A DNA stretch of 64,000 nucleotides from an uncultured Heliomicrobium sp. (GTDB lineage Bacteria > Acidobacteriota > Blastocatellia > RBC074): assembly GCA_964426025.1 (NCBI GenBank), contig CAYRQB010000001.1, positions 1,151 to 65,150 on the forward strand. Direction: 5' to 3'. The stretch's first letter is position 1. Each line of letters starts with the position of its first letter. Positions 7,394 through 38,168 of the stretch are shown piece by piece. The notes under the pieces were generated by a model. That model was not told the DNA's origin, searched no databases, and saw only the letters and a list, made by a program, of their open reading frames with translations. Both the position numbers and the translations under genes were made by a program.

Positions 7394-7472
7394 CATTTTC
7401 CAGCTTTTCATTGCAGGCTTATTCGATGGCCTGAGCAGTTACCCTTTATCAACGAAACAAAGCGAGGGACTC

Positions 7473-14869: not shown

Positions 14870-16087
14870 CTGACCGTAACAAATTGCCTGGTCTTGAATA
14901 GCCTGATGTTTCGGGGCTGCGAACAGTCTTTGGATATACTTGATTATGCGAGCTTGGACTGCCCCGACAGTGAACAAGGGATGCGCGAGATTGTCAACGG
15001 AATCTTTTGTGTAAAGTTGGCATTGTAAGGCCATCAGAATATGGACTCATTTTTTGAAATCAGGGCAATCTGGAGCAAAATCATTTTTCTGCTTAACCGG
15101 TAGCAAATAGGAGGTAGCTCCGGTGCAATCCCATATCCCAAGTCAGGTTTTAATTAGTGGAGCGACCAGAACTGGTCAATATGGCGAAAAATCTATTCAA
15201 TGTTGGCCATCGGACAAATCATCCTACGTACAGCATATGGGAGGACCCTCCTATAAAAATTATCGCTCCCGCCTATAAAAAATAGTCCGTGTCACCGATG
15301 CGCAGCGCTTTCCAAAAAGTTATCTTACACTTGTCCCATTCATTACTGCAGAAGTGTGGAGCTACATTTGGTGATTGAATTAACCAATTTAGCGGCAGTA
15401 AGCGGGGCAGTCTCAATAAGTGCATAACTTCAAAACCGGATTCAGTTGGCAATTGATTAAGCGACAAACGAGCGGAAGTTTTTCTCACATCGCATAGTCA
15501 ATCGAATAGCTGCCAAACTGGTTCAGTTCAGCGAAAATACGCGCCCGATTCTGTGACAATCCAGGCATGAACCGCTAACAGTTGTTGTGGGGGCGTTGGT
15601 TTTACAGGCTTCCGAACTGTGCCGGTAGCGGTTTGGTTTTGGGTAAAGGGAATTCACAAATTTTTTGGGCCGAGTTATTGACTGGAAACTCCGGATGGCG
15701 ATCCGGCGATATTCAGTCGCAAAGAGCACAGATCAAATCCAGGATTTAAGCTACGGCGGATGGTTGGTGACGGCTTGGATAAGTAGCTTGCTTTTTAAAG
15801 CAGATGGATTGTTGACAGCAACAAATATCAGGTTCATTTGCCATGAGCCAATTCTCTCTCGGCTAATTATCCCTATAAACATTACGTCGCCAAAGATTCT
15901 CCATCATTTCCAACAGGCCTAACTGGTTTTTCAGTTCAGGCGGAATGATTGGAAAGTCAATATATCGTTTTGAACAACCAGGATGCTGCCTCGGCATGAG
16001 GTTTCCTTCAAGGTTTCAAGTTTGGGCAAGGTGTGTCTTGACGGAAAACAACAAGCCGAACAAGGCATCCGAAGAGAAATAAAACGT

Positions 16088-17944
16088 ATGGGATCAAATG
16101 CATTAGTTATTGGAGCAGGACCTGCCGGTTTAACCGCCGCCTATGAATTGTCGAAACTCGGTATGGGGTCAACCATCATCGAGGCAGACGCACAGGTCGG
16201 CGGTATTTCGCGAACGGTCAATTACAAAGGCTACAGATTTGATATTGGCGGACACCGCTTTTTCTCGAAGGTTCCGGTCATCAACGAACTGTGGCAGGAA
16301 ATTCTGAGCGAAGATTTTCTGCTGCGGCCTCGGATGTCCAGGATTTATTATCGTGGGCACTATTTCGATTATCCGCTGAAAGCTGCCAACGCTCTGGCCG
16401 GATTGGGGCCGGTGGAAGCTCTGTTGGTGATGATGAGCTACAGCAAGGCCAAGATGATGCCGCACGGAGACGAGAGCAATTTCGAGCAGTGGGTTTCCAA
16501 CCGCTTCGGCCAACGGCTGTACGAAATCTTTTTCAAAACCTACACCGAGAAAGTTTGGGGAATCCCCTGCAGCGAAATTTCGGCGGATTGGGCGGCTCAG
16601 CGCATCAAAAACCTTTCGCTCAAAGAAGCCATTCGCAACGCGCTGTTCAGCGCCGCCAAAACCACCGACGGTGAAGTCATCACGACCCTGATTGATCAAT
16701 TCCATTATCCGCGTCTGGGGCCGGGAATGATGTGGGAATGCTGCGAAGAGATTCTGGCTTCGCAGGGAAATGAAACCGTTCACGGCATCAAGGTTGAAAA
16801 GGTTCGCCACCGAAAGGGAAGAGTCGAGACAGTGGTCGGTCGCAACAAAGACGGCGAGATGGTTGAATTCGACGCCGATCATTTCATCTCTTCTATGCCC
16901 TTGCGAAGTTTGATTCGCAGCCTCGATCCGTTACCGCCGGACGAAGTTCTGCAGGCGGCAAACACTTTGCGGTACCGCGATTACCTGACGGTGGTCTTGA
17001 TCGCCAAACGCGATAACGTTTTCCCGGACAACTGGATTTACATTCATTCTCCCGAAGTGAAGATGGGGCGGATTCAGAATTACAAAAACTGGAGTCCGGA
17101 AATGGTTCCCGACTCTTCGCGCAGTTCGCTGGGGCTGGAATATTTCCTCTGGCAGAAAGACGAAGAATGGGATTGGCCGGACGAACAGTTGATTGATCTG
17201 GGCATCAAGGAAGTGACCAAGATCGGGGTAATCGAACCGAGCGAAATAGAGGACGGAACGGTCGTCAGAATGAAAAAGGCGTATCCGGTTTACGATCAGG
17301 GATACAAAGAGAATCTGGAATTGATCAAAAACTATCTGGCGACGATCACCAACCTGCAAACCGTCGGCAGAAACGGATTGCATCGTTATAACAACCAGGA
17401 TCATTCGATGTTGACTGCGGTTTACGCCGCGCGCAACATCGTCGGCGAACAGAACGATGTCTGGTCGGTGAACACCGAAATGGAGTACCACGAAGAAGTG
17501 AAATCGCCGGGACCGGAACGTTCCAGTACAATCGCAAACACAATGGGCGACAGGGCAGTACCGATGCCGTTGAGAGAATCAGCCGGAACTGATTTCTCCA
17601 CCGACGAGATTATTCAGAAAGCCTTTGCCAAACTCGATCCAATTGCGCTTGGCATATCGCTTGGCGCGGTCGTTGGAACGATAATCTTTCTGGCGACGGC
17701 GGCGCTGATTTTGAAAGGCGGACCGGTAATCGGACCGACTCTTGGTTTGCTGCGTAATTACCTGTTCGGTTACGAAGTGAACTGGCAGGGGGCATTTGTC
17801 GGTTTGGCAGAAGGTGGAATCGGCGGTTTCCTGCTCGGATACGTTGTGGCCAATCTAAGAAACTGGGGAATGAGGGCATATGCCCATTTGATACGGCGAC
17901 GCGCCGAATCAAAGGCCCAGCAACATTTACTGGATGAAGTATGA
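16088..17944 (+). CDS. NAD(P)/FAD-dependent oxidoreductase with a C-terminal membrane domain
   Basis: ATG at 16088; the track ORF starts at 15983. The start gives [21 protein letters not shown], a Rossmann dinucleotide-binding motif. The body resembles the amine-oxidase/UDP-galactopyranose-mutase-like superfamily. The last ~110 aa form a hydrophobic two-helix module ([22 protein letters not shown]...[15 protein letters not shown]). Confidence 0.8.
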
Positions 17945-18270
17945 CGACGACAAATTCAACCATGGCAGAAAAAAATCGGACTACTGAAGAAATAAGCCTG
18001 GAAATCATGAGGATTCAGGCTGGCGTGTTGGCGTTGGTGTGCGCAGTCATCGGCGGAATTGGTTTGTTCGCCATGACAGTCTGGCTGTTGATCAAAGACG
18101 GGCCGGGCGCGGGGCCGCACCTGCAATTGCTCGGTCAATATTTCATCGGCTATTCCGTGACCTGGGGAGGCAGCGTGATCGGTTTGTTTTACGGCGCGCT
18201 GACCGGCGGAATTGTTGGATGGATCATCGGCATGATTTACAACCTGGTTGCCGGACTGCGGCGTGGATAA
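17941..18270 (+). CDS. Small two-TM membrane protein, paralog of the oxidoreductase C-terminal tail
   Basis: Its ATG overlaps the upstream stop (ATGA). [48 protein letters not shown] aligns with [44 protein letters not shown] in the preceding protein. Confidence 0.6.
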
Positions 18271-18321: not shown

Positions 18322-20649
18322 ATGCAATCTGAAATAGTCCGACCGATCAAAGATTCAACTTCGGCGGACAGGGGCAGAACTGTCCGAACTCCTCTTCTAT
18401 ACAGTTTGTTGCGTTTTCTAAGCTGGGCGCTGGCCATCGGTTGTTTTGCGTGGGCGGCCAAAGATTCGCGCTTTCGCGATGTCGAAGGTTTTATTCGCGG
18501 CGAAATCTGTTTGCCGATTTCAGCCGGAATCGCGCTGATCATTCTGGGATATTCGATCACCAAACCGTGGCGAAAGGCCGCCGCGTGGTTGGCGCTGGCT
18601 TTGATCGGGCAGGCGACAGCTTTGCAAATGATTGATGCCGGCCCGACGATGCATTACCAGCATTACCGGCCAATTCAATTTCTTATTCAACATTCGCCCT
18701 GGCTGATTGTTTTGTTCGCAGTTCAAGCGGTTCTGGCGCTGGCCGGGTTGCGAAGCCGATGGAGCAGTGTCAAATCCTGGCTCGCGCGCAACTTCAAATT
18801 CTGGCAACTGGCCGGAATCGGCATTGTCTTTGTTGTCACCAGCGCGACGGTTTCACGCGAAGCCAGGCTTTATCTGGAAGAGCTTCCGTTTGCCGCTTTC
18901 GTTCAATTCGTTTGTCTGATCAATCTGGCGCTGGCGGCAATGGCGATTCAGGACGACGTGCTAACGCGTTGGAAATCCGGGATTGAGCGTTGGATCGGTT
19001 GGGAAGCGGACGAGAGCGAAAGATTCGACCGAATTGTCATCTTTGCCGCAATAGGAGTGACAGCGCTTTGCGCGGTCTTGAGCGCTTTTTCTTATCAGCG
19101 GCATCCGCATCTCGGCGACGAAGTTTCCTATCTTTACCACGCGCGTTATCTGGCGACGGGCGTTTTGACAATGCCTTTGCCGTCGGCGCTCGACGCTTTC
19201 AATCTGGATTTGTTCGATTACGACAATGCGCGATGGTACGCCGCGCCTCCTCAAGGCTGGCCATTGATTTTGGCGATTGGCGTATGGTTCAAAGCTCCGT
19301 GGCTGGTCAATCCGCTGCTGTCTGGTTTGTGCGTTGTGCTGACTTACCTGTTGGCGCGCGAACTTTACGACAGACGAACGGGACGATTGTCGGCTCTGCT
19401 GTTGGCGGTTTCGCCGTGGTATGCGTTTGTCGGCATGAGCTTTATGACTCATACGGCATCGTTGACATTTGCGTTGGCGGCTGCTGTTGCTGTTGTTTGG
19501 GCAAGGAAGACAGGGCGAATCCACTGGGCGTTACTGTCGGGTTTGGCGACCGGAGTGGTTGGAATGATTCGCCCGCTGGAAGGCGCAATCATCGGCGGAT
19601 TGCTCGGATTGTGGATCATCGGCGTCGGCGGCAAACGGTTGAAAGTTCCAGCCATCGCCGCCTGGATTTTCGGATGCCTGATCGTCGGCGGATTCATCTT
19701 TCAATACAACAAGACTCTGACCGGCAGTCCGACCAAATTCCCGATCATGGTTTGGGCTGACAGGTTTATGGGATTGAACAGCAATGCGATGGGATTTGGC
19801 GCTGATCGCGGAGCCGGTTGGGCGTTGGATCCTTTTCCCGGTCACAGTCCGCTTGACGCCATCATCAATTCCAACCTGAACATTACCGTCATCAACACTG
19901 AATTGTTCGGTTGGGGCGTAGGCTCGCTGCTGTTGATGACGATGCTTTTCTTTTCGCTGAAGATGCGCAACAGCGATTACCTGATGCTGGCTTTGATCGC
20001 GGCGATTTTCGTCGCTCATTTCTTTTACTGGTACAGCGGCGGGCCGGATTTCGCTGCGCGGTACTGGTTTATGATGATCGTCCCATTGGTTGTTCTGTCG
20101 GTTCGCGGATTGCAGATTCTGGCCAACAAACTGACTGGCGATGTTGACAGAAAACCGTTGAACAAAACCCGGCTGCTGGTTGTGGCGCTGTCTTTGTGCG
20201 CGATGGCGCTGGTCAATTTCACGCTCTGGCGAGCGATTGACAAATATCATCATTACCTGGGCATGCGTCCTGACGTGATTCGTTTGGCCGAGAAAGAAAA
20301 CTTCGGCAAAAGCCTGATTCTGATTCGCGGCAAACATTCACCCGATTACGCCTCGGCGGCGATTTACAACCCGATTGATCTGCGCGCCGATGCGCCGGTT
20401 TACGCCTGGGACAACAACGCCGGTTTGCGAGCCAAATTGCTAGAACAATATTCCGATCGTCCGGTCTGGATTGTCGAAGGCCCATCGTTGACCGGACATG
20501 GTTTCAAGGTTGCTGAAGGACCGTTGACGGCGCAGACGCTGTTGGAACGCGATCGCAAGTCTGCCGAATCGGGGCATTGGCAACCGACTTACGCCGAAAA
20601 ACTGCCAGCCGATTTTGAACCGGCATATACCAAACCTCGCGCGCAATAA
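18322..20649 (+). CDS. GT-C fold membrane glycosyltransferase (ArnT/PMT-like, GT39/GT83-type)
   Basis: 775 aa with about 12 predicted TM segments. The first extracytoplasmic loop contains HLGDEVSYLYHARY, a DE motif. A large C-terminal soluble domain follows. Confidence 0.7.
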   Translation: MQSEIVRPIKDSTSADRGRTVRTPLLYSLLRFLSWALAIGCFAWAAKDSRFRDVEGFIRGEICLPISAGIALIILGYSITKPWRKAAAWLALALIGQATALQMIDAGPTMHYQHYRPIQFLIQHSPWLIVLFAVQAVLALAGLRSRWSSVKSWLARNFKFWQLAGIGIVFVVTSATVSREARLYLEELPFAAFVQFVCLINLALAAMAIQDDVLTRWKSGIERWIGWEADESERFDRIVIFAAIGVTALCAVLSAFSYQRHPHLGDEVSYLYHARYLATGVLTMPLPSALDAFNLDLFDYDNARWYAAPPQGWPLILAIGVWFKAPWLVNPLLSGLCVVLTYLLARELYDRRTGRLSALLLAVSPWYAFVGMSFMTHTASLTFALAAAVAVVWARKTGRIHWALLSGLATGVVGMIRPLEGAIIGGLLGLWIIGVGGKRLKVPAIAAWIFGCLIVGGFIFQYNKTLTGSPTKFPIMVWADRFMGLNSNAMGFGADRGAGWALDPFPGHSPLDAIINSNLNITVINTELFGWGVGSLLLMTMLFFSLKMRNSDYLMLALIAAIFVAHFFYWYSGGPDFAARYWFMMIVPLVVLSVRGLQILANKLTGDVDRKPLNKTRLLVVALSLCAMALVNFTLWRAIDKYHHYLGMRPDVIRLAEKENFGKSLILIRGKHSPDYASAAIYNPIDLRADAPVYAWDNNAGLRAKLLEQYSDRPVWIVEGPSLTGHGFKVAEGPLTAQTLLERDRKSAESGHWQPTYAEKLPADFEPAYTKPRAQ

Positions 20650-20661
20650 CCGAATCAACAA

Positions 20662-21990
20662 ATGCAATCTGTCTTGAACACATTGATTGGCGATTGGCGT
20701 CTGATGCAATCGGCGGAATCGGCGCGTATTTACAGGCGGATGACGATTGTGTTTACGGCGTTGATCGTCGTCGTCGCTGTGACCGGCAGCCTGGTTCCGG
20801 CGGGCATTGGCTGGGACTTCGCCAACTTTTACGACACCGGTCGTCGGATTGTCGCTTGGCAAATCGCCGACCTTTACAACCCTGACAGCCTGATCAACGG
20901 CGCTGCGCCGCAGGGCGGTCTGGCTTTTTGGGGAACGCCGATTTCGGCCTTGCTTTATGCGCCGCTCGGATTGCTGTCGGCTGAATCCTCGCTGCTTGTG
21001 TTCAAGCTTCAAAACACGCTAGCCCTGTTCGCCGCCTTGTGGTTGCTTTATCTGCACAATCGCAAATTCGCCGAAAATACAAACGCGGCTCAATGGCAAT
21101 ACGCCGCTTTGTTCGCCGGACTGGTTCTGCTTTACCAACCCTTCTGGTCTGTTTACCGCGTAGGCGGGCAAACGACTCCGACAGTGTTTTTGCTGTTGGT
21201 CGCAGCGATGATAGGACACGTTCGCAAGCGGTTCTGGGTTTCATCGGCTTGCGTGGTCGCGGCCATTCTGATCAAACCGGCCTTTGTGTTCGTGCTGCTT
21301 CCTCTGGTCGTAACTTCTGGCTGGCGGTATTTGCGAAACACTGCGGTCATTCTTGCCGGTGTCGGATTGGTTTCGTTGTTGATTCTGGGCTGGCAGGTTC
21401 ACGCGCAGTTTTTGCAGATGATGTCGCAGGGACTGAAAAACGCCTACCCGTGGTTTTACAACAGTTCGTTGTACGTCACGGCGGAGAATCTGAAGCTGCT
21501 GGCTTCGCCGCCGGTTGATGCGCGGTTGGTCGGCGTTTCTGTGTTGTTGGTCAAACTGCTGATGGTGACTTTGTGCGCTTATCTGATCTGGCAAGGGCGC
21601 AAACAGAAAATGACCGCAGCGGCTGGGAGGCATTTTGAGTTTCTGATGGCCGTCGTTTTCTGCCTGCTGGTTTCGCAGACGGTTTGGGAACATTACCTGT
21701 CAGTGCTTTTCCTGCTGCTGGCGTACGTCGTCGCTGCTCACAGGCATTTCAGCCTGGGCGCGCTTTCGTTGATCGCTGCCATCTTCATACTTTCCATCGG
21801 ACAAAATCTGATTCTCGTCAATCTTCTGCGCTCGATTCACAATTTCGATTCGGCGTTCGAACTGGTTTCAATCGGACTGTTCAAAAGCGCTCCGTTGTTG
21901 CTGACGGCGATTTTTTTATGGCTATGCCGACGAGAGTTTTTCAACAGTCATCTGGCCGCTGTCTGGGCGCAAACAGCGAAAGAGAAGTAA
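20662..21990 (+). CDS. Polytopic membrane protein, DUF2029/GT87-like putative glycosyltransferase
   Basis: 442 aa and multi-TM. The first loop carries GWDFANFYDTGRR. There is no soluble domain. Confidence 0.45.
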   Translation: MQSVLNTLIGDWRLMQSAESARIYRRMTIVFTALIVVVAVTGSLVPAGIGWDFANFYDTGRRIVAWQIADLYNPDSLINGAAPQGGLAFWGTPISALLYAPLGLLSAESSLLVFKLQNTLALFAALWLLYLHNRKFAENTNAAQWQYAALFAGLVLLYQPFWSVYRVGGQTTPTVFLLLVAAMIGHVRKRFWVSSACVVAAILIKPAFVFVLLPLVVTSGWRYLRNTAVILAGVGLVSLLILGWQVHAQFLQMMSQGLKNAYPWFYNSSLYVTAENLKLLASPPVDARLVGVSVLLVKLLMVTLCAYLIWQGRKQKMTAAAGRHFEFLMAVVFCLLVSQTVWEHYLSVLFLLLAYVVAAHRHFSLGALSLIAAIFILSIGQNLILVNLLRSIHNFDSAFELVSIGLFKSAPLLLTAIFLWLCRREFFNSHLAAVWAQTAKEK

Positions 21991-21993
21991 GCC

Positions 21994-24132
21994 ATGGCAT
22001 TTTCCGAACCTTTGTTGTCAATGTTGAATGTGTCTGGTCAGTCAGACGCTTCGCTACCAGATGATAGTCGAAGGTCTGTCGTCAAAGTCGTGCTGTTTTC
22101 CGGCGGCAGAGGATCAAGAGTGCTTTCACGACGATTGATCAACCACCCGCAGGTCAAACTGACTCTGGCCGTCAACGGTTATGACGACGGAGCTTCAACA
22201 GGCGAAGTCAGACGCTTTCTGGGCGACAGCCTTGGGCCGTCGGATTTTCGCAAGAACGCTTCGCGCATGGCCACTGAACTGCAACGCTGCCAACCGGAGT
22301 TGATCGAATTGCTTGATCTGCGATTGCCGGTCGGATGTACTGATGATGAAGGTCTGACGACTTTGCGATTGCTTTCAGATAAACAAGCCGCGCCGTCAAC
22401 CGATTGGCAAGCGGAGCTTCTGACCAAACAGGAAAAGCTGAACGAAGCCGCGCGGTCAGGGCTGGCGCGCAAACTGAAAAGTTTCGAGCGGGAATTGATC
22501 GAAAGCGGAAATTCATTTTCCTTCCACGATTGCAGTCTTGGGAACATAGTTTTCGCCGGATGTTTTTTGGAAGTCGGAAGGGATTTCAACTCGACCATCG
22601 CCGATTACTGCGCGCTGTTGAATCTGCCGGAAGACCTGATTGAAAACGTGACCACCGGAGAAAACGCCTGTCTGGTGGCGTTGAATCGCGAACACAGGTT
22701 GTTGACCACCGAAGCCGAAATTGTCAGCAGCAAACGGCGAAATCACATCAAGGACATTTACCTGTTCGATCGCATTCCGACGGCGGAAGAGGAAAAATGG
22801 CTGGCGACGGCGACGATTCAACAGATTGACAAGTTCATCGAGCAGCGATCAATCACACCGGCGATGAATCCGCGATTGCAGGCGAAAATCGCCGAAGCCG
22901 ATTTGATCATTTACGCGCCGGGGACTCAGCATTCCAGTTTGTTTCCGTCCTACCTGACCGCCGGTCTTGGCGAAACCATCGCGCAGAATCTGACGGCGAT
23001 TAAATTGCTGATCACCAATTTGCAGGAAGACGCTGAGATTCCAGACAGCAGCGCCGTGGACATCATTGATCGCGCGGTTTATTACCTGAAAGACCGCAAC
23101 ACGCGTTCGCTGCCGACGCCGTGTCTGATCACGCATTATTTGTTGAACGACCGCGAGCAGGGAACGGACGAAAAGCCCTACGTGCCATTGGGCCGGCTGG
23201 AAACTCTGGAAGACCCGCGCCTGGTCAGAATCGCCAATTACGAAGAGGGAAGCACTGGCTGTCACGATGCGTCGAAGGTTCTTTTGCCGTTCATCGAAAC
23301 CGCGCTGCGAACCGGAGAACGTCAAAGCATCGCCGTCTGGTTGTTGGACGGACAGACGCAGAACAAGATAACGCAGACGATTCTGGAAGCGCTGAGAGGC
23401 GGACTTGGGCGATTGCCTTTTTCAATCACTGTCTTTTATTGCAACGACGAATCGTTGCCTTACAGCTTCACCGGTTCGTTGCCGTTTGCCGTTCGCAACG
23501 TCGCCGTCAAAGGCGAATCCGAAACCGACGCCTTCCGCCGAACCCTGACCGATGAAAATTTCGATTACGTGATCCTGTTCGATTCTTCCGGGATGTATCA
23601 GGGCGAAGACATCGTCAACATCGCTTCGCTGCTGACCAACAGGCGATTGGACGCCGTGTGGGGAAGCCGCCGGTTGTCCGTCAAAGACATCCGCGAATCT
23701 TACAAACTGCGTTACCGGCACAATGTCGTGCTCGGCGCAATCAGTTATCTGGGCAGTCATTTGCTCAGCCTGGCATATCTGCTTCGTTACGGGCGTTATC
23801 TGTCGGACACGCTGTCGGCGGCCAGAGCGATCAGAGCATCTTATTTGCAAACCGGGCGATTAGATTTGAAGCATCCCAGTTTCAATCAACAATTGCTGTC
23901 GTTTCTGTTGGCCAATCGAGCCGAGCTGATTGAAACGCCAGTCAAATTCTTTCCGCTTTCGCCCGAAAAAGTTCGCAGAACTTCAATCCGCGAAGGCTTG
24001 CAATCTTTGGTTCTGGCCTTCATCGGAAAACCGAAAGCTATGCGCGAAAAGCCTGGCGCAACCGAATCCGGATATGTCCTGACGGAGCAATCGCCCAAAG
24101 GCGCGGCTTCGCCCGGATCAATACTGAAATGA
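21994..24132 (+). CDS. Fusion protein: N-terminal CofD/YvcK-like (UPF0052) domain, C-terminal GT2-like domain
   Basis: N-terminal motifs are VVLFSGGRGSRVL...AVNGYDDGASTGEVRR and ADLIIYAPGTQHSSLFPSYLTAGLGETI, matching the CofD/YvcK signatures GGGTG, DDGGSSG and ADLIV.GPGSLYTSI. The C-terminal 270 aa contain GT2-like motifs: VILFDSSG, DAVWGSRRLS and SDTLSAARAIR. Confidence 0.65.
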   Translation: MAFSEPLLSMLNVSGQSDASLPDDSRRSVVKVVLFSGGRGSRVLSRRLINHPQVKLTLAVNGYDDGASTGEVRRFLGDSLGPSDFRKNASRMATELQRCQPELIELLDLRLPVGCTDDEGLTTLRLLSDKQAAPSTDWQAELLTKQEKLNEAARSGLARKLKSFERELIESGNSFSFHDCSLGNIVFAGCFLEVGRDFNSTIADYCALLNLPEDLIENVTTGENACLVALNREHRLLTTEAEIVSSKRRNHIKDIYLFDRIPTAEEEKWLATATIQQIDKFIEQRSITPAMNPRLQAKIAEADLIIYAPGTQHSSLFPSYLTAGLGETIAQNLTAIKLLITNLQEDAEIPDSSAVDIIDRAVYYLKDRNTRSLPTPCLITHYLLNDREQGTDEKPYVPLGRLETLEDPRLVRIANYEEGSTGCHDASKVLLPFIETALRTGERQSIAVWLLDGQTQNKITQTILEALRGGLGRLPFSITVFYCNDESLPYSFTGSLPFAVRNVAVKGESETDAFRRTLTDENFDYVILFDSSGMYQGEDIVNIASLLTNRRLDAVWGSRRLSVKDIRESYKLRYRHNVVLGAISYLGSHLLSLAYLLRYGRYLSDTLSAARAIRASYLQTGRLDLKHPSFNQQLLSFLLANRAELIETPVKFFPLSPEKVRRTSIREGLQSLVLAFIGKPKAMREKPGATESGYVLTEQSPKGAASPGSILK

Positions 24133-24779
24133 TCAACGATTTCGATTTGCTGATTTTCGATATGGACGGAGTGCTGGTTGATACGACCAATTGTCATCAA
24201 CGAGCCTTCGCCAGATTGTGGCAGAAATTGGGAGTGGATGGTCCGGCTTACGATGAAATCGCCGGGCGCAAAACGAAAGATGTAGTTTCAGAATTCACTT
24301 TGCATTTGAATCCGACCGAAGCGCAGATCAACGAATGGGTCGTTTTCAAACAAAGACTGGCTCGCGAATGTCTGGCCATCGAAGAGATAGCTTTTGACGA
24401 CAGCGCGGAATCCATCAGCCAGTTGAGCGGCCATCAAATCAGATTGGCTTTGGGAACCGGAGCTTCGCGCGAAACCACTGCTTCAGTGTTGAACCGGCAA
24501 GGTTGGGGAGAGTCGTTTTCCGTCATCGTCACCGGCGAAGATGTGAATGCGGGAAAGCCCGAACCGGAAATTTATCTGGCTGCGATGGAAAGAGCCGGAG
24601 TCGAACCCGACAGAACATTGATCATTGAAGACAGTCAGGCTGGGCTGGCTTCGGCGATTGCATCCGGCGCTTACGCGGCGGTGGTCAGGACGGGCAGAAA
24701 GTCAGAATCAAAACGGTTCGTCGGCAGCTTTCCCGATTTGAAATCCTTATTTACTACTTTGGGGGTGAACGGAGCATGA
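24129..24779 (+). CDS. HAD-IA family hydrolase, beta-phosphoglucomutase-like phosphatase
   Basis: LLIFDMDGVLVDT is HAD motif I with the nucleophilic Asp. GTGASRE and GKPEPEIY are also present. Confidence 0.85.
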   Translation: MINDFDLLIFDMDGVLVDTTNCHQRAFARLWQKLGVDGPAYDEIAGRKTKDVVSEFTLHLNPTEAQINEWVVFKQRLARECLAIEEIAFDDSAESISQLSGHQIRLALGTGASRETTASVLNRQGWGESFSVIVTGEDVNAGKPEPEIYLAAMERAGVEPDRTLIIEDSQAGLASAIASGAYAAVVRTGRKSESKRFVGSFPDLKSLFTTLGVNGA

Positions 24780-25564
24780 GTCGGTTGATGATTATTCCGG
24801 CGGCGGGTTTGGGGTCGCGATTGCAATCGGAAATACCGAAGGTTTTATTTCCGGTCAACGGACGACCGATGATTGATTACCTGTTCGATCTTTATGCGCC
24901 GTTGATTGATCACTTTGTTCTGGTGATTCATCCGTTCGCAGCAGTCGCTTTGGAAAGCCATTGCTCGCGTCTGAGATTGCCGATTGAGTTCGAGATTCAA
25001 TTAGCGCCAACGGGAATGCTGGACGCGATCATGATTTCGCAGGAAGTCGTCCGCCATCATCAACCTGATCAAGTCTGGATCACCTGGTGCGATCAAATAG
25101 CGGTTCGTCGTCAAACCATCGAGCGGTTGGCTGAAACCGCGACTGCGCGAAAAGACGCTGCGGTCGTCATGCCTACGATCATCAAACCGGAGCCTTATAT
25201 TCATTGGGTCAGAAACGAACGCGGGGAAATAGTTGATTTGCTGCAACGTCGCGAAGCAGACGACATGCCTGTGAGCGGAGAAGGCGACATTGGTTTGTTC
25301 AGTTTGTCGCGACGCGCTTATCTGGAATTGTTGCCGCGCTTCGCCGCCGAAGCAGGCATCGGCAGCGCGACTCAGGAAAGAAATTTCCTGCCGTTCATTC
25401 CCTGGTTGGCGAAACAGAAGGACGGCGAAACGGCGGTTTGCACTTTTCCGGCGCTGGATGAAATCGAATCCGTCGGCATCAACACCAAAGACGATCTGGC
25501 ATTGATCGAAAAATATTTGAGCAATGAACACACGCAAGCTTTCAGTCATCATTCCAGCTTATAA
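24776..25564 (+). CDS. IspD/TarI-like nucleotidyltransferase (probable cytidylyltransferase)
   Basis: IIPAAGLGSRLQSEIPKVLFPVNGRPMIDYL matches the PAAGxGxRM...PKQ(Y/F)L...G.P(I/L)L motif of the IspD/TarI family. It is coupled to the upstream gene by a 4-nt overlap. Confidence 0.65.
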   Translation: MSRLMIIPAAGLGSRLQSEIPKVLFPVNGRPMIDYLFDLYAPLIDHFVLVIHPFAAVALESHCSRLRLPIEFEIQLAPTGMLDAIMISQEVVRHHQPDQVWITWCDQIAVRRQTIERLAETATARKDAAVVMPTIIKPEPYIHWVRNERGEIVDLLQRREADDMPVSGEGDIGLFSLSRRAYLELLPRFAAEAGIGSATQERNFLPFIPWLAKQKDGETAVCTFPALDEIESVGINTKDDLALIEKYLSNEHTQAFSHHSSL

Positions 25565-26255
25565 CGAGGAACAGTTCATTGGCCGTTTGCTGGAAAAAGT
25601 TCTGGCCGTTGATTTGTCGCGCTTCAATCTGGAGAAGGAAGTCATTGTCGTTGACGACCGTTCAAGCGATCGCACGGCGGAAATCGCCGGTCAATTTTCC
25701 GAAGTCATTTTGCGAACTCACGAAGTGAACCAGGGCAAGGGCGGAGCAGTCAGAACCGGACTGGCTTTGGCCACAGGAGATTTCGTCATCATTCAGGACG
25801 CCGATCTGGAATACGATCCGAACGATTATGTGCAGATGTTTTTGGCTCTGTTTGAAAACGGCACGGGCGCTGTTTACGGCAGCCGATATATGAAACATCC
25901 GAACGGCGGAGTTTTCATCAACCTGCTGACCGGAAAACATCCAGGACAATCCTGGCCCGCATATCTGGGCGGACAAAGCCTTAGCTTCGCTTCGCTGATT
26001 TGCACCGGACGTTATCTGACAGACACCGTGACTGCGTTGAAGCTTTTCAAACAGGAAGTCATCAAACCGTTGGAGCTTCAGACGAGCGGCTTTGAACTGG
26101 ATCACGAAATTTCAGCCAAAGTCCTGGCCAAAGGTTACAAGATAAGAGAAGTGCCGATCAGCTATTTCCCTCGCAGCAAAGAGGAGGGGAAGAAGATCGG
26201 TTTGAAAGATTGGTTTATCGCTTTGAGAACGTTTTACCGTTTCCGCAGAGGTTGA
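25524..26255 (+). CDS. Glycosyltransferase family 2, DPM1-like
   Basis: GT2 core motifs are LSVIIPAYNEE, VIVVDDRSSDRT and IIQDADLEYDP (the DxD). Confidence 0.85.
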   Translation: MNTRKLSVIIPAYNEEQFIGRLLEKVLAVDLSRFNLEKEVIVVDDRSSDRTAEIAGQFSEVILRTHEVNQGKGGAVRTGLALATGDFVIIQDADLEYDPNDYVQMFLALFENGTGAVYGSRYMKHPNGGVFINLLTGKHPGQSWPAYLGGQSLSFASLICTGRYLTDTVTALKLFKQEVIKPLELQTSGFELDHEISAKVLAKGYKIREVPISYFPRSKEEGKKIGLKDWFIALRTFYRFRRG

Positions 26256-31218: not shown

Positions 31219-31363
31219 GCCGGAAAGCGGACAATAGCCGGAACACGGAAATAGCCGGAACGCGGACGTTCCCGTCCGCAAACTGGTTGGCGGACTTCCA
31301 GTCCGCCCTTCACGCTGGAGTAGATTTCTCAATTACAACATACACGCGGACAGAATGTCCGCG
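31219..31363. promoter_or_regulatory. Three tandem 17-bp direct repeats followed by three GCGGAC..GTCCGC hairpins
   Basis: The direct repeats are gccggaaagcggacaat, agccggaacacggaaat and agccggaacgcggacgtt, spanning 31219..31270. The hairpins are GCGGACgttcccGTCCGC at 31262..31279, GGCGGACTtccAGTCCGCC at 31289..31307 and CGCGGACAgaaTGTCCGCG at 31345..31363. Confidence 0.6.
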
Positions 31364-31378
31364 TTCCAAGGAATGACC

Positions 31379-32533
31379 ATGCAGCTATTAAACCGAGTCG
31401 CAAAACACGCGCGTTTGAACTGGCAGAATCTGGCCATACCGGACGTGACCAGCCCGCCTTTCGTGATCCTGTTCATCAATTCGATCTGCAATATGAAATG
31501 CGAACATTGCTTTTACTGGTCGAGTCTGAACAAACGCGACGACCTGAGCTTTGAAGAAATCGTGGCTTTGTCCAAAGAACTGGGGCCGATTGAAAACCTG
31601 AATCTTTCAGGCGGCGAGCCTTTTTTGCGAAAAGAGTTCGGCGCGATCTGTCGCCAGTTCATTCAGCAAAACGGCGTCAAGGAAATTTACGTTCCCAGCA
31701 ACGGCTGGTACACGGACAAAACCATCGCGCAGATTCGTGAAACGCTGAAGGAAAAAAGCCTGAAGATTTTCGCTATCGAACTTTCGCTTGACGGCATGCA
31801 GGAATTCCATGACCGGTTCCGCGTCGCTCCTGGCGCTTTTGAACATGCGATGAAAACTTACGACGCATTGGTTGAATTGCAACGCGAAGATTCACGGTTG
31901 CAGATTCATTCAATTTCAACCGCAACTGCCGAAAACATGGACGAGATTCGGCGGCTGACGACTTACCTGTACGAGCGTTGTCCGCAAATGTCGCATCACA
32001 ATCTGGCGCTGATTCGCGGCGACCGCAAAAATCCTTCGTTGCAGGGACCGAAGCTGGCCGAATACCAGAGGCTTTACGAATACGTCAAACGTTTGTGGGC
32101 GCCGCGCGAAGAAAGCCGTTACGGCAGCATAGTCGAACCGATGCTGCAATGGGCGAAAGTCAAAACCGCCGAAGAGCAACGGCAAGTCATCCCTTGCCGC
32201 GCAGGAGTGTTGAGCGTGGTCATCAACGCCAACGGCGACGTTGGGCTTTGTGAACAGCACAAACCAATCGGCAATCTGCGGCAGAAATCATTCAACGAAA
32301 TCTGGCATTCTGAAGAAACGCGTCGGCTTAGAGCTTCGATCAGCGCGAAAGAATGTTATTGCACCAACGAAATTTTCCTGTGGCCGAGCATCACTTTCCA
32401 ACCGGTTCAATTGGCCAAAGCCATGATCGGCGCAAAGGTCTGGCGGAAGGCTGAGCCTTTGCCCGTTGGCGAACGCGCGGATTACAACGCGAGCGGAAAA
32501 ATGGAATTGCCGATTTTGCCGATGAAGCAGTGA
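31379..32533 (+). CDS. Radical SAM enzyme with a reduced SPASM/twitch-type C-terminal domain
   Basis: CNMKCEHC is a Cx3Cx2C motif. GGEP is present. The C-terminal Cys residues are CRAG, LCEQH and ECYC only. The start is taken at the ATG at 31379, which has an AAGGAA 6 nt upstream; the track start at 31355 lies inside a hairpin. Confidence 0.8.
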
Positions 32534-32571: not shown

Positions 32572-33843
32572 ATGTTGTTCAAAAATTTCCTATCACTGGC
32601 CGGAGCCGAAATCGCCGCGAAGGCGTTGACCTTTGCGGCGTTCGCTTATCTGGCGCGAGTGGCCGGGCCGGACGGATTCGGTTACATCGAATTCGCGGCG
32701 GCTGTGGTGATGTGTGCCGGTCTGGTCGTCGAACAAGGCTTCAATCCATTCGGCGCGCGCGAAATCGCCAAATCGCCCGAACGGACGAACGCGCTGGTTT
32801 CGGAAATTTTTCTGGTTCGATTGGTTCTGGCAATCTGTTTGTATGTTGGCGTGGTCGTCTTCTCTCTGAGCTTCGATCGTTCGCCGCTGCTGACGCGCTT
32901 GTTGTTGGTTTACGGTTTGAGTCTGTTGGCGATGCCCTTGCTATTGCAATGGGTCTTTCAGGGTCACGACCGAATGCAAGTTGTCGCGGCGATTCAAATC
33001 ATACGGCAGATGGTTTTTGCGGCGATGGTCTTTGGATTCGTTCGCGAAGCTTCGCAAATCTGGATGGTCGGATTGGCGGAAACCGCCGGATTGATCGGCG
33101 CAGCGGCTTTCGGCGTCTGGATGTATCGTTGTCAATTGAACGGCAGAATTCATCTGCGGTTAAGCGTTTCATCCCGGTTGGTTCGCGAAGGCGCGACCAT
33201 CGGATTGAGCCAGATTTTCTGGGTCGTCAAAATGTCCGGCGCGACGTTGATTATGGGTTTGATGGCGACGGCTGAAGACGTAGGTTACTTCGGCGGAGCG
33301 ATGCGGATTCTGATGGCGCTTCACACCTTCGTCTGGCTTTACTTCTTCAATATGCTGCCGACGATGTCCAGGTCCTGGGCGGCTGCGGACGGTTCGTTTG
33401 CCGCACTGATAGCGCGTTCGATGCGATTGATTGTGGCGCTGTCGTTTGTCGGAGCGATCATCTGGGTGATGGCGTCTCCGTTGGTTGTCAGAATTGCTTA
33501 CGGCCAGGCTTTTGCTCCGGCGGGCGTGGCGTTGCAATGGTTCGCGGGCGTTTGCGCTGTGGCGGCCATCAGCGGTCATTACCGTTTCGGTTTGATCGCC
33601 GCCGGACATCAGACCGCAGAAATGCTGACGGCATTGATCGGCGCGATTGCCGCTGTGATTCTGGTTCCGGCTGGTTATTTCGCCTCTGGCGTTGGCGGAG
33701 CGGCGGCGGGATTGTTCATCGGCGAAGTTCTGATCTGGCTCAGCGCGTGGTGGTTCGGGCGAAGGAAATTGCACTTGGGTTCGCGCCGCTTCGACAGCGC
33801 GGCGGTCGGAAGCGCGGCTTATCAGGGTGAGGTCACACAGTGA
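32572..33843 (+). CDS. wzx: Wzx-type oligosaccharide flippase (polysaccharide biosynthesis protein, MOP superfamily)
   Basis: 423 aa with about 12 TM segments. Composition and length are typical of the PST-family Wzx. Confidence 0.75.
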   Translation: MLFKNFLSLAGAEIAAKALTFAAFAYLARVAGPDGFGYIEFAAAVVMCAGLVVEQGFNPFGAREIAKSPERTNALVSEIFLVRLVLAICLYVGVVVFSLSFDRSPLLTRLLLVYGLSLLAMPLLLQWVFQGHDRMQVVAAIQIIRQMVFAAMVFGFVREASQIWMVGLAETAGLIGAAAFGVWMYRCQLNGRIHLRLSVSSRLVREGATIGLSQIFWVVKMSGATLIMGLMATAEDVGYFGGAMRILMALHTFVWLYFFNMLPTMSRSWAAADGSFAALIARSMRLIVALSFVGAIIWVMASPLVVRIAYGQAFAPAGVALQWFAGVCAVAAISGHYRFGLIAAGHQTAEMLTALIGAIAAVILVPAGYFASGVGGAAAGLFIGEVLIWLSAWWFGRRKLHLGSRRFDSAAVGSAAYQGEVTQ

Positions 33844-35451: not shown

Positions 35452-36416
35452 ATGGTAAACATGGCGCAACCAGTAACAACAATTTCTGAACAAGCTGAAA
35501 CGATAGCGCAACGAGGCAGATTGCGCGCGTTGCTGATTTCCATGCGTCCGCATCAATGGACGAAGAATCTGTTCGTTCTGGCTCCGCTGCTGTTCGGTCA
35601 AAAGCTAGGGGATTTGAATGCGGTAGGATTGGCGTTGATGGCTTTCGCAGCTTTTTGTCTGATCTCCAGTTCGCTTTACATCATCAACGATGTTGCAGAC
35701 GCCGAAGCCGACCGAGCGCATCCTGAAAAACGTCTTCGCCCGATTGCTTCCGGCGAGCTTACGGTTTCGTTGTCGTTGCTGTCTGTCATTGTTTTGCTGG
35801 CGATTGCGTTTGGAATCGCGGCTTCCATTGGCTGGCGGTTTATGGCGTTGGCCGGAGCTTATGGAGTTCTGACTCTGGGTTATTCGCTGGCTGTCAAACA
35901 CGTAGTGATTCTGGATTGCATGACCATCGCCACGGGTTTTGTTTTGCGCGTGGTTGGCGGAGCGGTCGCAGTCAGCGTTACGCCGACGCATTGGTTGATC
36001 GCCTGCGCTTTTCTGCTGGCGCTGTATCTGGCCTTTGCCAAAAGGCGGCAGGAGATTCTGTTGCTGGCCGAATCGGCGCGCGAACATCGTCAGGTGCTCG
36101 GCGAATACACGGTCAGTTTTCTCGATCAGGTCAACAACATTCTGGTTGGCGCGACGATAGTTTGTTACACGCTTTACACAGTAGCGCCTGAAACCGTCGC
36201 GCGTTTCGGCACTGACAAACTGATTTACGGAACCATCTTCGTCGTTTACGGAATGTTGCGATACATGATCCTGACTCAGAATTCGGCCAATGGCGGCAAT
36301 CCCAGCAAGGCGTTGATCAGCGACAAACCGTTGTTGTTGGCGATCATCGGCTGGGCGATTTACAACGCTTTGATTATTTATCGCGGCGTAATGGTTTCGT
36401 TGTGGGGGCAGGTGCA

Positions 36417-36420
<4 letters not shown>
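35452..36420 (+). CDS. UbiA-family prenyl-phosphate phosphoribosyltransferase-like (DPPR-synthase-like)
   Basis: IINDVADAEADRAHPEKRLRPIASG is the NDxxDxxxD Mg-binding motif. Multi-TM. Similarity is to decaprenyl-phosphate phosphoribosyltransferase. Confidence 0.8.

Positions 36421-38164
<1,744 letters not shown>

Positions 38165-38168
<4 letters not shown>

Follow-up and report, generated by a model that had tools for sequence, protein, structure and literature searches.

A widespread protein fusion of a YvcK/CofD-like domain with a degenerate copy of a polyprenyl-phosphate-type glycosyltransferase

Results

The locus and its genes

The window analysed here, a stretch of 64,000 nucleotides from an uncultured member of the Blastocatellia, carries an operon-like run of genes around an open reading frame of 712 aa, which the initial annotation had described as a UPF0052 domain joined to a GT2-like catalytic half. 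The features considered are:

18322..20649, + strand: another GT-C-type membrane glycosyltransferase, PMT_2/STT3-like, 775 aa, lying upstream within this operon-like run
20662..21990, + strand: GT87-family GT-C glycosyltransferase, 442 aa (PF09594, E 1.4e-14)
21994..24132, + strand: target ORF, 712 aa, YvcK/CofD-superfamily domain fused to a degenerate GT2 domain of the polyprenyl-phosphate-glycosyltransferase type
22072..23313, + strand: N-terminal YvcK/CofD-like domain, about aa 27-440 (PF01933), carrying a helical insertion (about aa 88-175)
23314..24063, + strand: C-terminal GT2* domain, about aa 441-690, GT-A fold of DPMS/ArnC/GtrB type, D-S-S at the DXD position
24129..24779, + strand: HAD-IA hydrolase, 216 aa, sugar-phosphate phosphatase/beta-phosphoglucomutase-like, accessory part of the module
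24776..25564, + strand: nucleotidyltransferase (NT), 262 aa, GlmU N-terminal-domain type
25524..26255, + strand: intact small GT2 (GT2s), 243 aa, DPMS/AglJ-type polyprenyl-phosphate glycosyltransferase

The stop codon of the GT87 gene and the ATG of the target are separated by 3 nt, the target TGA shares an ATGA with the HAD start codon (24129-24132) and the HAD TGA shares another with that of the NT (24776-24779), which agrees with the 4-nt translational coupling proposed initially; the NT and small GT2 genes overlap by 41 nt.

The fusion is genuine and widespread

The 712-aa protein is a genuine, widespread fusion of a YvcK/CofD domain, of a type likely to bind UDP-sugars, with a degenerate copy of a lipid-carrier glycosyltransferase. 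Scoring of 8000 candidates gave 1771 homologues at E<1e-5. Of the best 120, nearly all were 660-716 aa long with about 90% coverage or higher; the exceptions were a small number of shorter entries and two longer proteins that also contain GT87. A single HSP spanned both domains in 79 of 80 loci from related genomes of several phyla. An assembly or frameshift artefact is excluded because both halves share one frame in these genomes, and assembly error or chance is far from sufficient to account for the architecture. The name in the public database is 'CofD family protein', all named family members come from uncultured genomes, and our literature search found no paper describing the architecture, which is thus uncharacterised and unstudied, as initially supposed, though widespread.

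The N-terminal domain resembles YvcK more than CofD

The N-terminal assignment was confirmed by PF01933, which matched aa 32-386 (E 1.8e-15; 57.3 bits against a Pfam cut-off of 30). The motifs GGRGS, NGYDDGxSTGE and ADLIIYxPGTQxSSLxPSY, annotated initially in the forms GGxG, DDGxSxG and ADLIxxxPGxxxxSLxP, were invariant across 38 homologues. The domain is the most conserved portion of the fusion protein and contains many invariant polar residues, those invariant in both distant clades being G37, G38, G40, N61, Y63, D64, G66, S68, T69, G70, R73, G81, P82, S83, D84, R86, K87, R110, G183, N184, N218, T220, E240, P309, G310, T311, S314, S315, N342, D346 and H424. The retained Asp, Ser, Thr and Gly motifs are those that surround the metal-diphosphate site in the superfamily.

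The best structural matches of the domain were of YvcK type (2hzb, 2o2z and 2q7x). A search of structures with the family profile returned 2hzb and 2ppv at 6.5e-23 and no CofD or FbiA structure at E<=1, and Foldseek gave 8.5e-10 for YvcK versus 1.8e-4 for CofD. Judged by profile and modelled fold, the domain is nearer to YvcK/GlmR, which bind UDP-sugars, than to true CofD. Among NCBIfam models the top score was that of the GAK-system CofD-like protein (TIGR04357; 79 bits over aa 31-389), but this lies far under the cut-off of 340, the target belongs to a separate superfamily clade, and GAK-system models matched none of the neighbouring ORFs searched. The YvcK family model (TIGR01826) scored 48 bits against a cut-off of 196, and the NCBIfam CofD equivalog did not match at E<=0.01. 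UDP-Glc and UDP-GlcNAc are ligands of YvcK (PMC5482804); its UDP-sugar residues Y265 and R301 could not be placed in an alignment with the target, whose model is of low confidence at aa 375-425. Charged and poorly conserved, the insertion at aa 88-175 is no obvious lipid pocket.

The C-terminal domain is a degenerate GT2

The GT2 identity of the C-terminal half held at the level of fold, with matches to DPMS, ArnC and GtrB, but not by PF00535, which found no match on the 712-aa protein at E <= 0.01; NCBIfam AglJ matched weakly (E 1e-4, aa 503-630). Its description as catalytic was not upheld. The N-terminal nucleotide-binding motifs NE and DDxSxD are absent, the C-terminal PRxxxGxSK-type motif is altered in the window's clade, and the DXD position reads ESS in 51 and DSS in 13 of the 80 loci, while an intact paralogue is encoded by the next-but-two gene. 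GT2* is a degenerate paralogue of the polyprenyl-phosphate GT2 of DPMS type encoded at 25524-26255 and, in the window's clade, is probably not the catalyst. It nevertheless carries the invariant motifs F(D/E)SSGMY, DAxWGSRRLS and GRYxxDxLS, and three residues of its acceptor-side motifs, D605, E647 and R559, do not vary in either clade; such strong purifying selection may reflect a new binding or catalytic role beyond docking.

Relatives with fused GT2 domains fell into three classes. The first has a canonical DAD and no separate small GT2 nearby (L084, L086); an intermediate class has a PSDGEY variant, keeps NE and DGGSxD, and is accompanied by a separate 245-aa GT2, GtrA and PMT (L085, L087); the window's class has (D/E)SS together with a separate GT2. 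The free small GT2 is 44-49% identical to the canonical CofD-fused GT2 of class-1 relatives, whereas GT2* shares 19-29% with intact GT2 paralogues, a difference consistent with a duplication after which the fused copy decayed.

Partner genes and conservation of the module

The HAD-IA phosphatase call was borne out (PF13419 at 9.5e-28; TIGR01509 at 60 bits against a cut-off of 29.4), the best PDB matches being the TM_1254 carbohydrate phosphatase and beta-PGM. The gene was found in 19 of 58 close loci and, since it is missing from about two thirds of them, its role is not obligatory; among distant relatives it was present or fused in all four loci examined (L084-L087). The NT had been assigned to the IspD/TarI type, an assignment that did not survive: PF01128 (IspD) reached 25.8 bits, below its cut-off of 27, over aa 5-54 only, whereas the full-length likeness is to GlmU (PF12804 at 2.9e-16; TIGR01173 at 5.7e-22 over aa 5-255; GlmU in 17 of 17 PDB sequence matches). 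An HMM check gave no CofC (PF01983) match. By homology, the NT is probably a sugar-1-phosphate uridylyltransferase.

The small GT2 keeps the canonical PAYNE, DDxSxD and DAD motifs, matches PF00535 at 1.3e-32 and aligns with the P. furiosus DPMS (5mlz) at 1.2e-19 over aa 3-241, covering the catalytic domain and interface helices; it is probably the catalytic partner of the fusion protein. The NT and small GT2 lie within 3.5 kb of the fusion gene in 57 of 58 well-flanked loci, and a GT87 gene is directly upstream in 15 of these 58. The GT87 protein is the probable consumer of the lipid-linked sugar. The upstream position of the 775-aa gene (PF13231 at 1.3e-8; NF047440 at 1.7e-10) is conserved in Blastocatellia loci, and the commonest other neighbours of the family are GT-C or polytopic membrane proteins. 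No GtrA-type flippase gene adjoins the target in the window.

Parts of the module also occur as single chains, namely NT-CofD-GT2 (P0145, P0149, P0165), HAD-NT-CofD-GT2 (P0162, 1148 aa, Nanoarchaeota), NT-CofD (P0224), HAD-NT (L086), NT with the small GT2 (L002) and GT87 fused N-terminally to CofD-GT2 (P0029 and P0033, 1165-1172 aa). The NT-CofD-GT2 and HAD-NT-CofD-GT2 chains, which belong to distant relatives, strongly reinforce the earlier proposal of a joint role for NTP-transferase and CofD-like domain.

Discussion

The reading that we tentatively favour is of a cytoplasmic module that produces a UDP-sugar and charges polyprenyl phosphate with it, for use by GT-C enzymes in periplasmic glycosylation, with the YvcK-like domain docked through a pseudo-GT2. 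The family physically couples a YvcK/GlmR-type domain, which would bind a nucleotide-diphospho-ligand, to a DPMS/ArnC/GtrB-type polyprenyl-phosphate glycosyltransferase. The fusion protein and the GlmU-like NT, joined in the ancestral state by a sugar-phosphate phosphatase or mutase of the HAD-IA type, would form a module on the cytoplasmic face. The HAD protein would optionally supply sugar-1-phosphate, the NT would convert this and UTP to UDP-sugar, and the intact 243-aa GT2 would transfer the sugar to polyprenyl phosphate, the presumed lipid acceptor; the polyprenyl-P-sugar would then be flipped, and the adjacent GT87 and PMT_2-like GT-C enzymes would decorate an envelope glycan with the sugar. 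GT2*, being without donor- and metal-binding motifs, is most likely a pseudo-enzyme through which the YvcK-like domain is held at the active GT2, in a putative hetero-oligomer, and at the membrane. The YvcK-like domain itself most likely binds UDP-sugar and controls or channels how it is used. The type of GT2 and the GT87 and PMT_2 neighbours point to a polyprenyl-phosphate-linked sugar donor for GT-C enzymes rather than direct polysaccharide elongation.

The locus recalls three-component periplasmic glycosylation systems composed of a polyprenyl-P GT2, a flippase and a GT-C enzyme (GtrB/GtrA/GtrV, CsbB/GtcA/YfhO, ArnC/ArnT, DPMS/PMT and Ppm1/PimE), since an intact DPMS-type GT2 lies beside GT87 and PMT_2 GT-C enzymes and GtrA adjoins in the distant loci L085 and L087; in mycobacterial Ppm1, too, a cytoplasmic synthase is fused to a membrane partner. 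PimE, a GT87 enzyme, has 12 TM helices and both termini in the cytoplasm (PMC12041525). However, these systems have neither a YvcK/CofD-like domain, nor a dedicated NT or HAD, nor a degenerate second GT2, and the GT2 of the target locus lacks TM helices of its own. YvcK/GlmR/CuvA (UPF0052, TIGR01826) is the best profile and fold match to the N-domain, has GGxG, DDGxSxG, PxxD(I/V/F)R(K)N, SLGN, PGxxxxS and N-x in common with it, and binds UDP-Glc or UDP-GlcNAc, the kind of product expected of the GlmU-like partner. Yet YvcK stands alone (about 320 aa), lies in a yvcJ-yvcK-whiA context and acts on GlmS, whereas the target domain has an insertion of about 75 aa, a GT2 fusion and a glycan cluster with GT-C enzymes.

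A possible but less likely alternative is CofD-type catalysis. The N-domain would then be a phosphotransferase at which, as in CofD/FbiA, a hydroxyl or phosphate attacks the beta-phosphate of an NDP-activated compound made by the NT, releasing NMP; the resulting lipid-linked donor, with its sugar-1-P or phospho-X group in phosphodiester linkage, would be transferred by the GT-C enzymes. Polyprenol or polyprenyl-phosphate would serve as acceptor, or else a polyprenyl-P-sugar made by GT2s and held by GT2*, whose conserved non-canonical site could bind such a lipid-linked acceptor, and the HAD protein could trim leftover phosphate. The invariant D64, D65 (DD) and D84 (GPSD) lie in motifs taken, by motif and not by superposition, as equivalent to those of Asp45 and Asp57 of FbiA, which coordinate the catalytic metal and the beta-phosphate (PMC7253369). 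The obligatory NT pairing or fusion parallels CofC-CofD, the HAD-NT-CofD-GT2 order within one chain resembles a pathway, and the CofD-like domain is better conserved than GT2*. However, profile and fold both group the domain with YvcK and not with true CofD, the motifs do not discriminate because they occur in YvcK as well, the NT is without CofC or IspD/TarI signature, and the charged, variable insertion offers no evident place for a lipid. We know of no phosphodiester-specific partner or product. The phospho-polyol or phospho-acid decoration first suggested is likewise weakened because the NT is GlmU-like and unlike IspD/TarI or CofC, and the other initial suggestion, a possible nucleotide-sugar-sensing domain built into a glycosyltransferase, would account for the data no less well than CofC/CofD logic. 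The conservation of the CofD-like domain and its constant NT company, for their part, are no less compatible with a catalytic step than with a sensor.

It is improbable that GT2* itself is still active, with a metal-independent or differently liganded donor site for which the YvcK-like domain would be the donor-binding half, yielding two lipid-linked sugars or a lipid-linked disaccharide. Its strong conservation within the clade, the invariance of D605, E647 and R559 and the motifs kept by the intermediate class would accord with activity, but the window's clade has lost NE, DDxSxD and DXD alike, its PRxxxGxSK-type motif is altered and PF00535 does not detect the domain. Slightly more doubtful still is an accessory uridylyltransferase, in which the YvcK-like domain would make UDP-sugar from sugar-1-P and UTP, as is reported for Listeria GlmR, and raise the local supply for the attached polyprenyl-phosphate glycosyltransferase. 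Purified GlmR was reported to make UDP-GlcNAc, the D40A/D41A/N198A triple mutant being about 100-fold less active (PMC10128056), and the DD pair is invariant as D64 and D65. Nevertheless, a dedicated GlmU-like NT adjoins in 57 of 58 loci, often in the same chain, which would make a second uridylyltransferase redundant, and the N198-equivalent position, mapped by alignment only, appears to be Ser. Nothing beyond the public name speaks for two genes run together by a missed stop or frameshift, or for an F420-pathway CofD (LPPG:FO transferase): the former is refuted by the uninterrupted frame and by an identical protein (P0001) in the public record, and the latter by the lack of any match to the CofD equivalog or to CofD/FbiA structures. 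CofD/FbiA (LPPG or EPPG : FO phosphotransferase) works with CofC, whereas the target has no F420 genes nearby, F420-biosynthesis families matched none of the neighbouring ORFs searched, all matches there were glycan-biosynthesis genes, and FO cannot be the acceptor.

Some observations sit uneasily with the docked, UDP-sugar-binding module that we favour, namely the unalignable Y265/R301, the missing adjacent GtrA, the mostly absent HAD and the strong conservation of GT2*. A physiological precedent for it is found in Listeria, where the loss of GlmR is suppressed if a wall teichoic acid decoration pathway that consumes UDP-GlcNAc is blocked (PMC10128056). If the YvcK-like domain indeed gates the use of UDP-sugar, a direction of control that we infer, decoration would be coupled to nucleotide-sugar supply.

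The fusion protein and its distribution

The initial annotation had described the 712-aa protein as a single polypeptide joining a CofD/YvcK-like domain to a GT2-like half, and neither a missed stop codon nor an assembly artefact accounts for it, since 79 of the 80 best loci gave one HSP across both domains and a contig end truncates the remaining one. The database also contains an identical protein, and the top 120 database homologues were nearly all 660-716 aa long at a coverage of about 90% or more, with a few shorter entries and two longer fusions to GT87. An exhaustive representative search returned at least 1,480 cluster representatives (E below 1e-30 for 389), and a scan of one genome per species found relatives in 534 species genomes, the best 80 of which are the basis of the locus counts reported here.

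The hosts include Blastocatellia, the lineage of the window itself, with 86% identity between the target and the protein of a Blastocatellales MAG, as well as Vicinamibacterales, Gemmatimonadota, Nitrospirales and Eisenbacteria. More distant relatives were found in Bdellovibrionota, Magnetococcales, Moraniibacteriota (CPR) and Nanoarchaeota. The module comprising the fusion, a nucleotidyltransferase (NT), a small free GT2 and sometimes a HAD hydrolase extends over Acidobacteriota, Gemmatimonadota, Nitrospirota, Bdellovibrionota, CPR bacteria and DPANN archaea, and all of its named members are MAGs, with no cultured organism among them. Public annotation of the relatives goes no further than "CofD family" or "YvcK family" protein, and the literature search found no paper on a CofD/YvcK-glycosyltransferase fusion, in agreement with the initial view that the architecture is uncharacterised.

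Genomic context

The target gene belongs to a tight run of genes on the + strand, from about 15.9 to 29.4 kb of the window:

Genes around the fusion in the window (coordinates, strand, product)
15983-17944, +, FAD-dependent oxidoreductase, first gene of the run
18322-20649, +, PMT_2/STT3-like GT-C membrane glycosyltransferase
20662-21990, +, GT87 GT-C enzyme
21994-24132, +, target ORF, 712 aa
24129-24779, +, HAD-IA hydrolase
24776-25564, +, NT
25524-26255, +, small free GT2, 243 aa, followed by three further GT2 genes

The proposed translational coupling was seen as ATGA overlaps at both junctions, target/HAD (24129-24132) and HAD/NT (24776-24779), and the spacing between the GT87 gene and the target is 3 nt. 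The NT and small GT2 genes overlap by 41 nt (25524-25564) in different frames, and in locus L002 (14237-15703) a single 488-aa protein combines the two. The overlap could be the trace of a recent fission or fusion, or the GT2 start may have been annotated too far upstream.

The stretch between about 13.7 and 53 kb is as a whole a glycan-biosynthesis island, with epimerases, dehydratases, a Wzx-type gene (32572-33843), a polysaccharide deacetylase, two radical SAM enzymes, a sugar C-methyltransferase, a UbiA-family protein with another PMT_2, an asparagine synthase, and GT4 and GT2 enzymes. When compared with three-component glycosylation systems, GtrA was absent from the window, while a GT2 and two GT-C genes do adjoin.

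The oxidoreductase (15983-17944, +) is a 653-aa protein assigned to PRK07208 (NF005548, 724 bits); its signals of similarity to UDP-galactopyranose mutase are weak, and its hydrophobic C-terminal tail of about 100 aa gave only a sub-threshold holin_4 match. Its gene overlaps by 4 nt with a 109-aa ORF (17941-18270, +). Both are kept upstream of the module in Blastocatellia loci, where the oxidoreductase shows 73-88% identity, and similar amine-oxidase/GLF-like genes also occur near the module in Gemmatimonadota (locus L003). The enzyme may act on the sugar nucleotide or the lipid-linked sugar. Because the 109-aa ORF, the oxidoreductase tail, a 531-aa ORF and a 738-aa ORF had no significant Pfam match, none of them was called a flippase. 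Elsewhere in the island, a UbiA-family prenyltransferase (35452-36420), a PMT_2 GT-C (36402-38168) and a GT2 (38165-39160), all on the + strand with overlapping ends, look like another lipid-linked sugar system that is distinct from the first and recalls decaprenyl-phosphoribose-type donors used with a GT-C enzyme. A 509-aa sulfatase-family (PF00884) protein (11975-13504, -) is encoded just upstream of the island. A 1525-aa ORF (7362-11939, +), which combines HEAT repeats with a segment similar to the C-terminal part of squalene-hopene cyclase (terpenoid cyclase/prenyltransferase repeats), appears unrelated to the fusion module.

The N-terminal domain resembles YvcK more than true CofD

The N-terminal domain matched PF01933 (CofD) over aa 32-386 with 57.3 bits (cut-off 30; E 1.8e-15), and relatives scored 72-120 bits. 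The UPF0052 motifs initially reported were recovered without variation across 38 aligned homologues (GGRGS, NGYDDGxSTGE, GPSDxRKNA and PGTQxSSLxPSY). At the family level, the YvcK/GlmR model TIGR01826 reached 48 bits in two partial stretches (cut-off 196) and the GAK-system CofD-like model TIGR04357 reached 79 bits (cut-off 340), with no match to other GAK-system models among the neighbouring ORFs searched.

In FbiA, Asp45 and Asp57 coordinate the catalytic metal and the beta-phosphate (PMC7253369), and D64/D65 and D84 of the target, which fall in the presumed corresponding motifs (by motif matching rather than superposition), are invariant. Since YvcK carries the same Asp motifs, their conservation is equally expected of a binder and of an enzyme. 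YvcK binds UDP-Glc and UDP-GlcNAc, and the UDP-sugar-binding residues of B. subtilis YvcK/GlmR are T14, N218, Y265 and R301 (PMC5482804). In the alignment, which reaches two of these positions and in which the correspondence of numbering is putative, the Asn of the CNV motif of YvcK, taken as N218, is matched by the invariant N342, and the position of the P-loop Thr (T14) is occupied by R39. A helical insertion of about 75 aa (approximately residues 88-175) is charged and poorly conserved except for R110 and P112, and the structure model is of moderate quality (pLDDT 72, with aa 375-425 below 50). At aa 423 of the target (window about 23260-23262; alignment A1 columns 440-450), a G-x-H-D-A motif, possibly the counterpart of a C-terminal RHD motif of YvcK, has an Arg before the invariant His in most members. 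This Arg is replaced by Cys, Thr or Tyr in the protein of the window and in those Blastocatellia proteins that are closest to it. If this residue is the counterpart of B. subtilis GlmR R301, ligand binding may differ in the sub-clade of the window.

The partner enzymes

The NT had been assigned to the IspD/TarI type, which did not hold: PF01128 gave 25.8 bits, under the cut-off of 27 and over aa 5-54 only, and the TIGR00453 match was partial. The protein aligns instead end to end with the GlmU uridylyltransferase domain (TIGR01173, E 5.7e-22, aa 5-255 on 3-243), its score staying under the equivalog cut-off for want of the acetyltransferase half; all 17 PDB sequence matches were GlmU, and the Pfam search gave no CofC (PF01983) match. 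It is therefore classified as a putative GlmU-type sugar-1-phosphate uridylyltransferase domain. For the hydrolase, the HAD-IA assignment was upheld by TIGR01509 (60 bits, cut-off 29.4) and an FDMDGVLVDT motif, with 85 bits against the 189 of the beta-PGM equivalog.

The C-terminal half of the fusion was confirmed as having a GT-A fold, but the expected PF00535 match was not found at E<=0.01, and an AglJ model matched at E 1e-4 only. The family profile of the fusion matched DPMS at 1.7e-14, and the fused half shares 26% identity (E 2e-13) with the free GT2. In this alignment, the DAD of the free paralogue falls on D-S-S, and the DXD position across the 80 loci reads ESS in 51, DSS in 13 and other variants in 3, with no regex match in 13; the NE and DDxSxD nucleotide-binding motifs are likewise absent from the fused half in the alignments. 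The free GT2 retains PAYNE, DDRSSD and DAD and has the features of a polyprenyl-phosphate GT2 (DPMS/AglJ/GtrB), matching the Pyrococcus furiosus DPMS 5mlz at E 1.2e-19 (aa 3-241 on 22-247, interface helices included) and the AglJ model at 2e-26, under the equivalog cut-off.

Alignment of distant relatives revealed three states of the fused GT2. In class 1 (proteins P0162 and P0167) it carries canonical PAYNE, DDGSxD and QDADLEY motifs, with no separate small GT2 nearby in loci L084 and L086. In class 2 the motif reads FPSDGEY, NE and DGGSTD are retained, and a separate 245-aa GT2 comes next (L085 and L087). Class 3, the clade of the window, has F(D/E)SSGMY, has lost NE and DDxSxD, shows an altered C-terminal motif, and nearly always has a separate canonical GT2 alongside. 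Free GT2 proteins share 44-49% identity with the class 1 fused GT2, while the fused copy of the window shares 19-29% with any of them. As judged from these alignments, the simplest history would be that a polyprenyl-phosphate glycosyltransferase was duplicated, the free copy keeping catalysis and the fused copy losing its donor-binding motifs. The fused half is nevertheless under strong selection (invariant DAxWGSRRLS, GRYxxDxLS and ExP), and the CofD-like domain, whatever its own activity, evidently must stay attached to a GT2-shaped partner.

Conservation of the module

Among the 58 close loci with at least 3 kb of flank on both sides, the neighbourhood survey supported the association of these genes, with the NT in 57 and the small GT2 in 57 within 3.5 kb; HAD was found in 19 and GT87 in 15. 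The components also occur fused to each other in several arrangements:

Fusions among module components (architecture, proteins or loci)
GT87-CofD-GT2, P0029 and P0033
NT-GT2, L002
NT-CofD-GT2, P0145, P0149, P0165 and others
NT-CofD, P0224
HAD-NT adjoining CofD-GT2, L086
HAD-NT-CofD-GT2 as a single 1148-aa chain, P0162 from a Nanoarchaeota MAG

HAD is present or fused in all four distant loci examined (L084-L087), from which we infer an ancestral unit with four activities and the loss, or relocation, of HAD in many Acidobacteriota. Apart from these genes, the module is most often accompanied by polytopic membrane proteins (GT87, PMT_2, a borderline DUF2298 and a 689-aa family that lacks annotation), and radical SAM/SPASM enzymes and sulfatase-family proteins also recur. 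The 689-aa family (L082:10983-13052, -), with related genes in 24 of the clustered loci, is second in frequency only to the core genes among the neighbours and had no Pfam match; it has in common with a 606-aa neighbour of borderline DUF2298 score an NP(F/Y)F.GEPLPYYW motif (see also L027:11856-13676), from which we guess that it may be an unclassified GT-C family. Sulfatase-family (PF00884) proteins of 600-630 aa lie near the module in 11 loci (L001 and L002 among them) and could be LtaS/EptA-like phospho-substituent transferases rather than sulfatases. A radical SAM/SPASM enzyme is encoded in the window (31355-32533, +), and a related 385-aa radical SAM protein occurs in 16 of the clustered loci, while the Nanoarchaeota locus L084 has two radical SAM enzymes and L086 has one. 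Further genes in the window encode a B12-binding radical SAM enzyme and a sugar C-methyltransferase (44404-46449 and 47431-48702, both +), and L084 has a B12-radical SAM enzyme and methyltransferases; this company suggests that the decorated sugar is unusual.

Proposed function and alternative explanations

The nearest characterised relative of every component handles a UDP-sugar or loads a lipid carrier: sugar-phosphate phosphatases/beta-PGM for the HAD-IA protein, GlmU for the NT, YvcK/GlmR for the N-terminal domain, and DPMS, ArnC and GtrB for the GT2; the genes alongside encode GT-C enzymes. For this reason we tentatively favour, at somewhat less than even confidence, a module working at the cytoplasmic face to load a UDP-sugar onto polyprenyl phosphate, with the YvcK-like domain gating or channelling the process. 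The module would make the UDP-sugar and move the sugar to polyprenyl phosphate, and the lipid-linked product would be flipped and then used by GT87 or PMT_2-type enzymes for envelope glycan decoration. In the clade of the window, the 243-aa GT2 would be the catalytic transferase, to which the fused GT2 half probably docks the YvcK-like domain, itself probably binding the UDP-sugar and gating or channelling its use. In this reading the architecture, its conservation, the fusions, the motif decay and the homologies are directly shown, and the ligand, acceptor, complex and direction of regulation are inferred. GtrB has been solved as tetramers and octamers, according to PDB entry titles. Both termini of PimE, a GT87 enzyme, are cytoplasmic (PMC12041525), a topology consistent with the soluble domains of the GT87-CofD-GT2 fusions lying on the cytoplasmic side. 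Loci L085 and L087 have the classic layout PMT ... HAD, NT-CofD-GT2, GT2, GtrA; compared to three-component GT-C systems, the module would add a conserved YvcK/CofD-like part and a probable pseudo-GT2. Of the two interpretations offered initially, a nucleotide-sugar-binding domain built into a glycosyltransferase fits slightly better, and the CofC/CofD analogy less so.

CofD-type catalysis forming a phosphodiester on a polyprenyl-linked acceptor would agree with an NT that is obligatorily paired, a domain order resembling a pathway and an N-terminal domain that is very highly conserved, but we consider it rather unlikely given the closer kinship to YvcK and an NT resembling GlmU rather than CofC or IspD. 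A little more doubtful still is that the N-terminal domain represents a new class of glycoconjugate phosphotransferase, which would direct a CofD-style attack on the beta-phosphate of the UDP-compound made by the NT, releasing NMP, with a polyprenyl-linked acceptor held by the fused GT2 half; the product would be a phosphodiester-linked lipid-linked sugar donor or a retaining-configuration polyprenyl-P-sugar, installed on the cell surface by GT-C enzymes. It is improbable that the fused GT2, conserved as it is, remains active through a non-canonical donor site. Listeria GlmR has been reported as an accessory uridylyltransferase whose activity falls about 100-fold in a D40A/D41A/N198A triple mutant, and its loss is suppressed by blocking the UDP-GlcNAc-consuming teichoic acid decoration pathway (PMC10128056); the same role for the N-terminal domain would be redundant with the adjacent NT, and we regard it as slightly more improbable again. 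An artefact and an F420 enzyme are both refuted. NCBIfam equivalogs and similarity to solved structures did not place the domain in CofD/FbiA, and the neighbouring ORFs searched encode glycosyltransferases, epimerases, radical SAM enzymes and Wzx instead of F420 biosynthesis proteins (cofC/fbiD, cofE/fbiB, cofG/H/fbiC).

Three known pathways were also considered and rejected or placed lower. GpgS/MpgS chemistry (glycosyl-3-phosphoglycerate synthase with a HAD phosphatase) gave weak matches and comes after the polyprenyl-phosphate reading, DPMS, ArnC and GtrB scoring better and GT-C neighbours being pervasive. GmhB/HddC-like heptose logic, a phosphatase followed by an NT, had nothing in its support, the HAD protein being of class IA and not IIIA. 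The pentofuranose three-component system (PMC11127046), with gPRT-HAD enzymes, a MATE flippase and GT136, was inapplicable.

Implications

YvcK/GlmR is a conserved protein that matters for cell-envelope integrity and virulence, and its function is disputed between a UDP-GlcNAc-responsive regulator of GlmS and an accessory uridylyltransferase. The fusion family ties a YvcK-type domain to an NT and a polyprenyl-phosphate glycosyltransferase, sometimes in one chain, and may thus serve as a natural "Rosetta stone" for the partner of this domain, which would be a UDP-sugar en route to a lipid carrier. The fused GT2 also illustrates clearly how a glycosyltransferase paralogue decays into what is probably a pseudo-enzyme scaffold, and the module would give the three-component periplasmic glycosylation systems of the textbooks a fourth or fifth component that had gone unrecognised. 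If CofD-style catalysis were true, it would open a new route to phosphodiester-linked glycan decorations, and a phosphotransferase activity would define a catalytic chemistry for the YvcK branch, which has long been debated.
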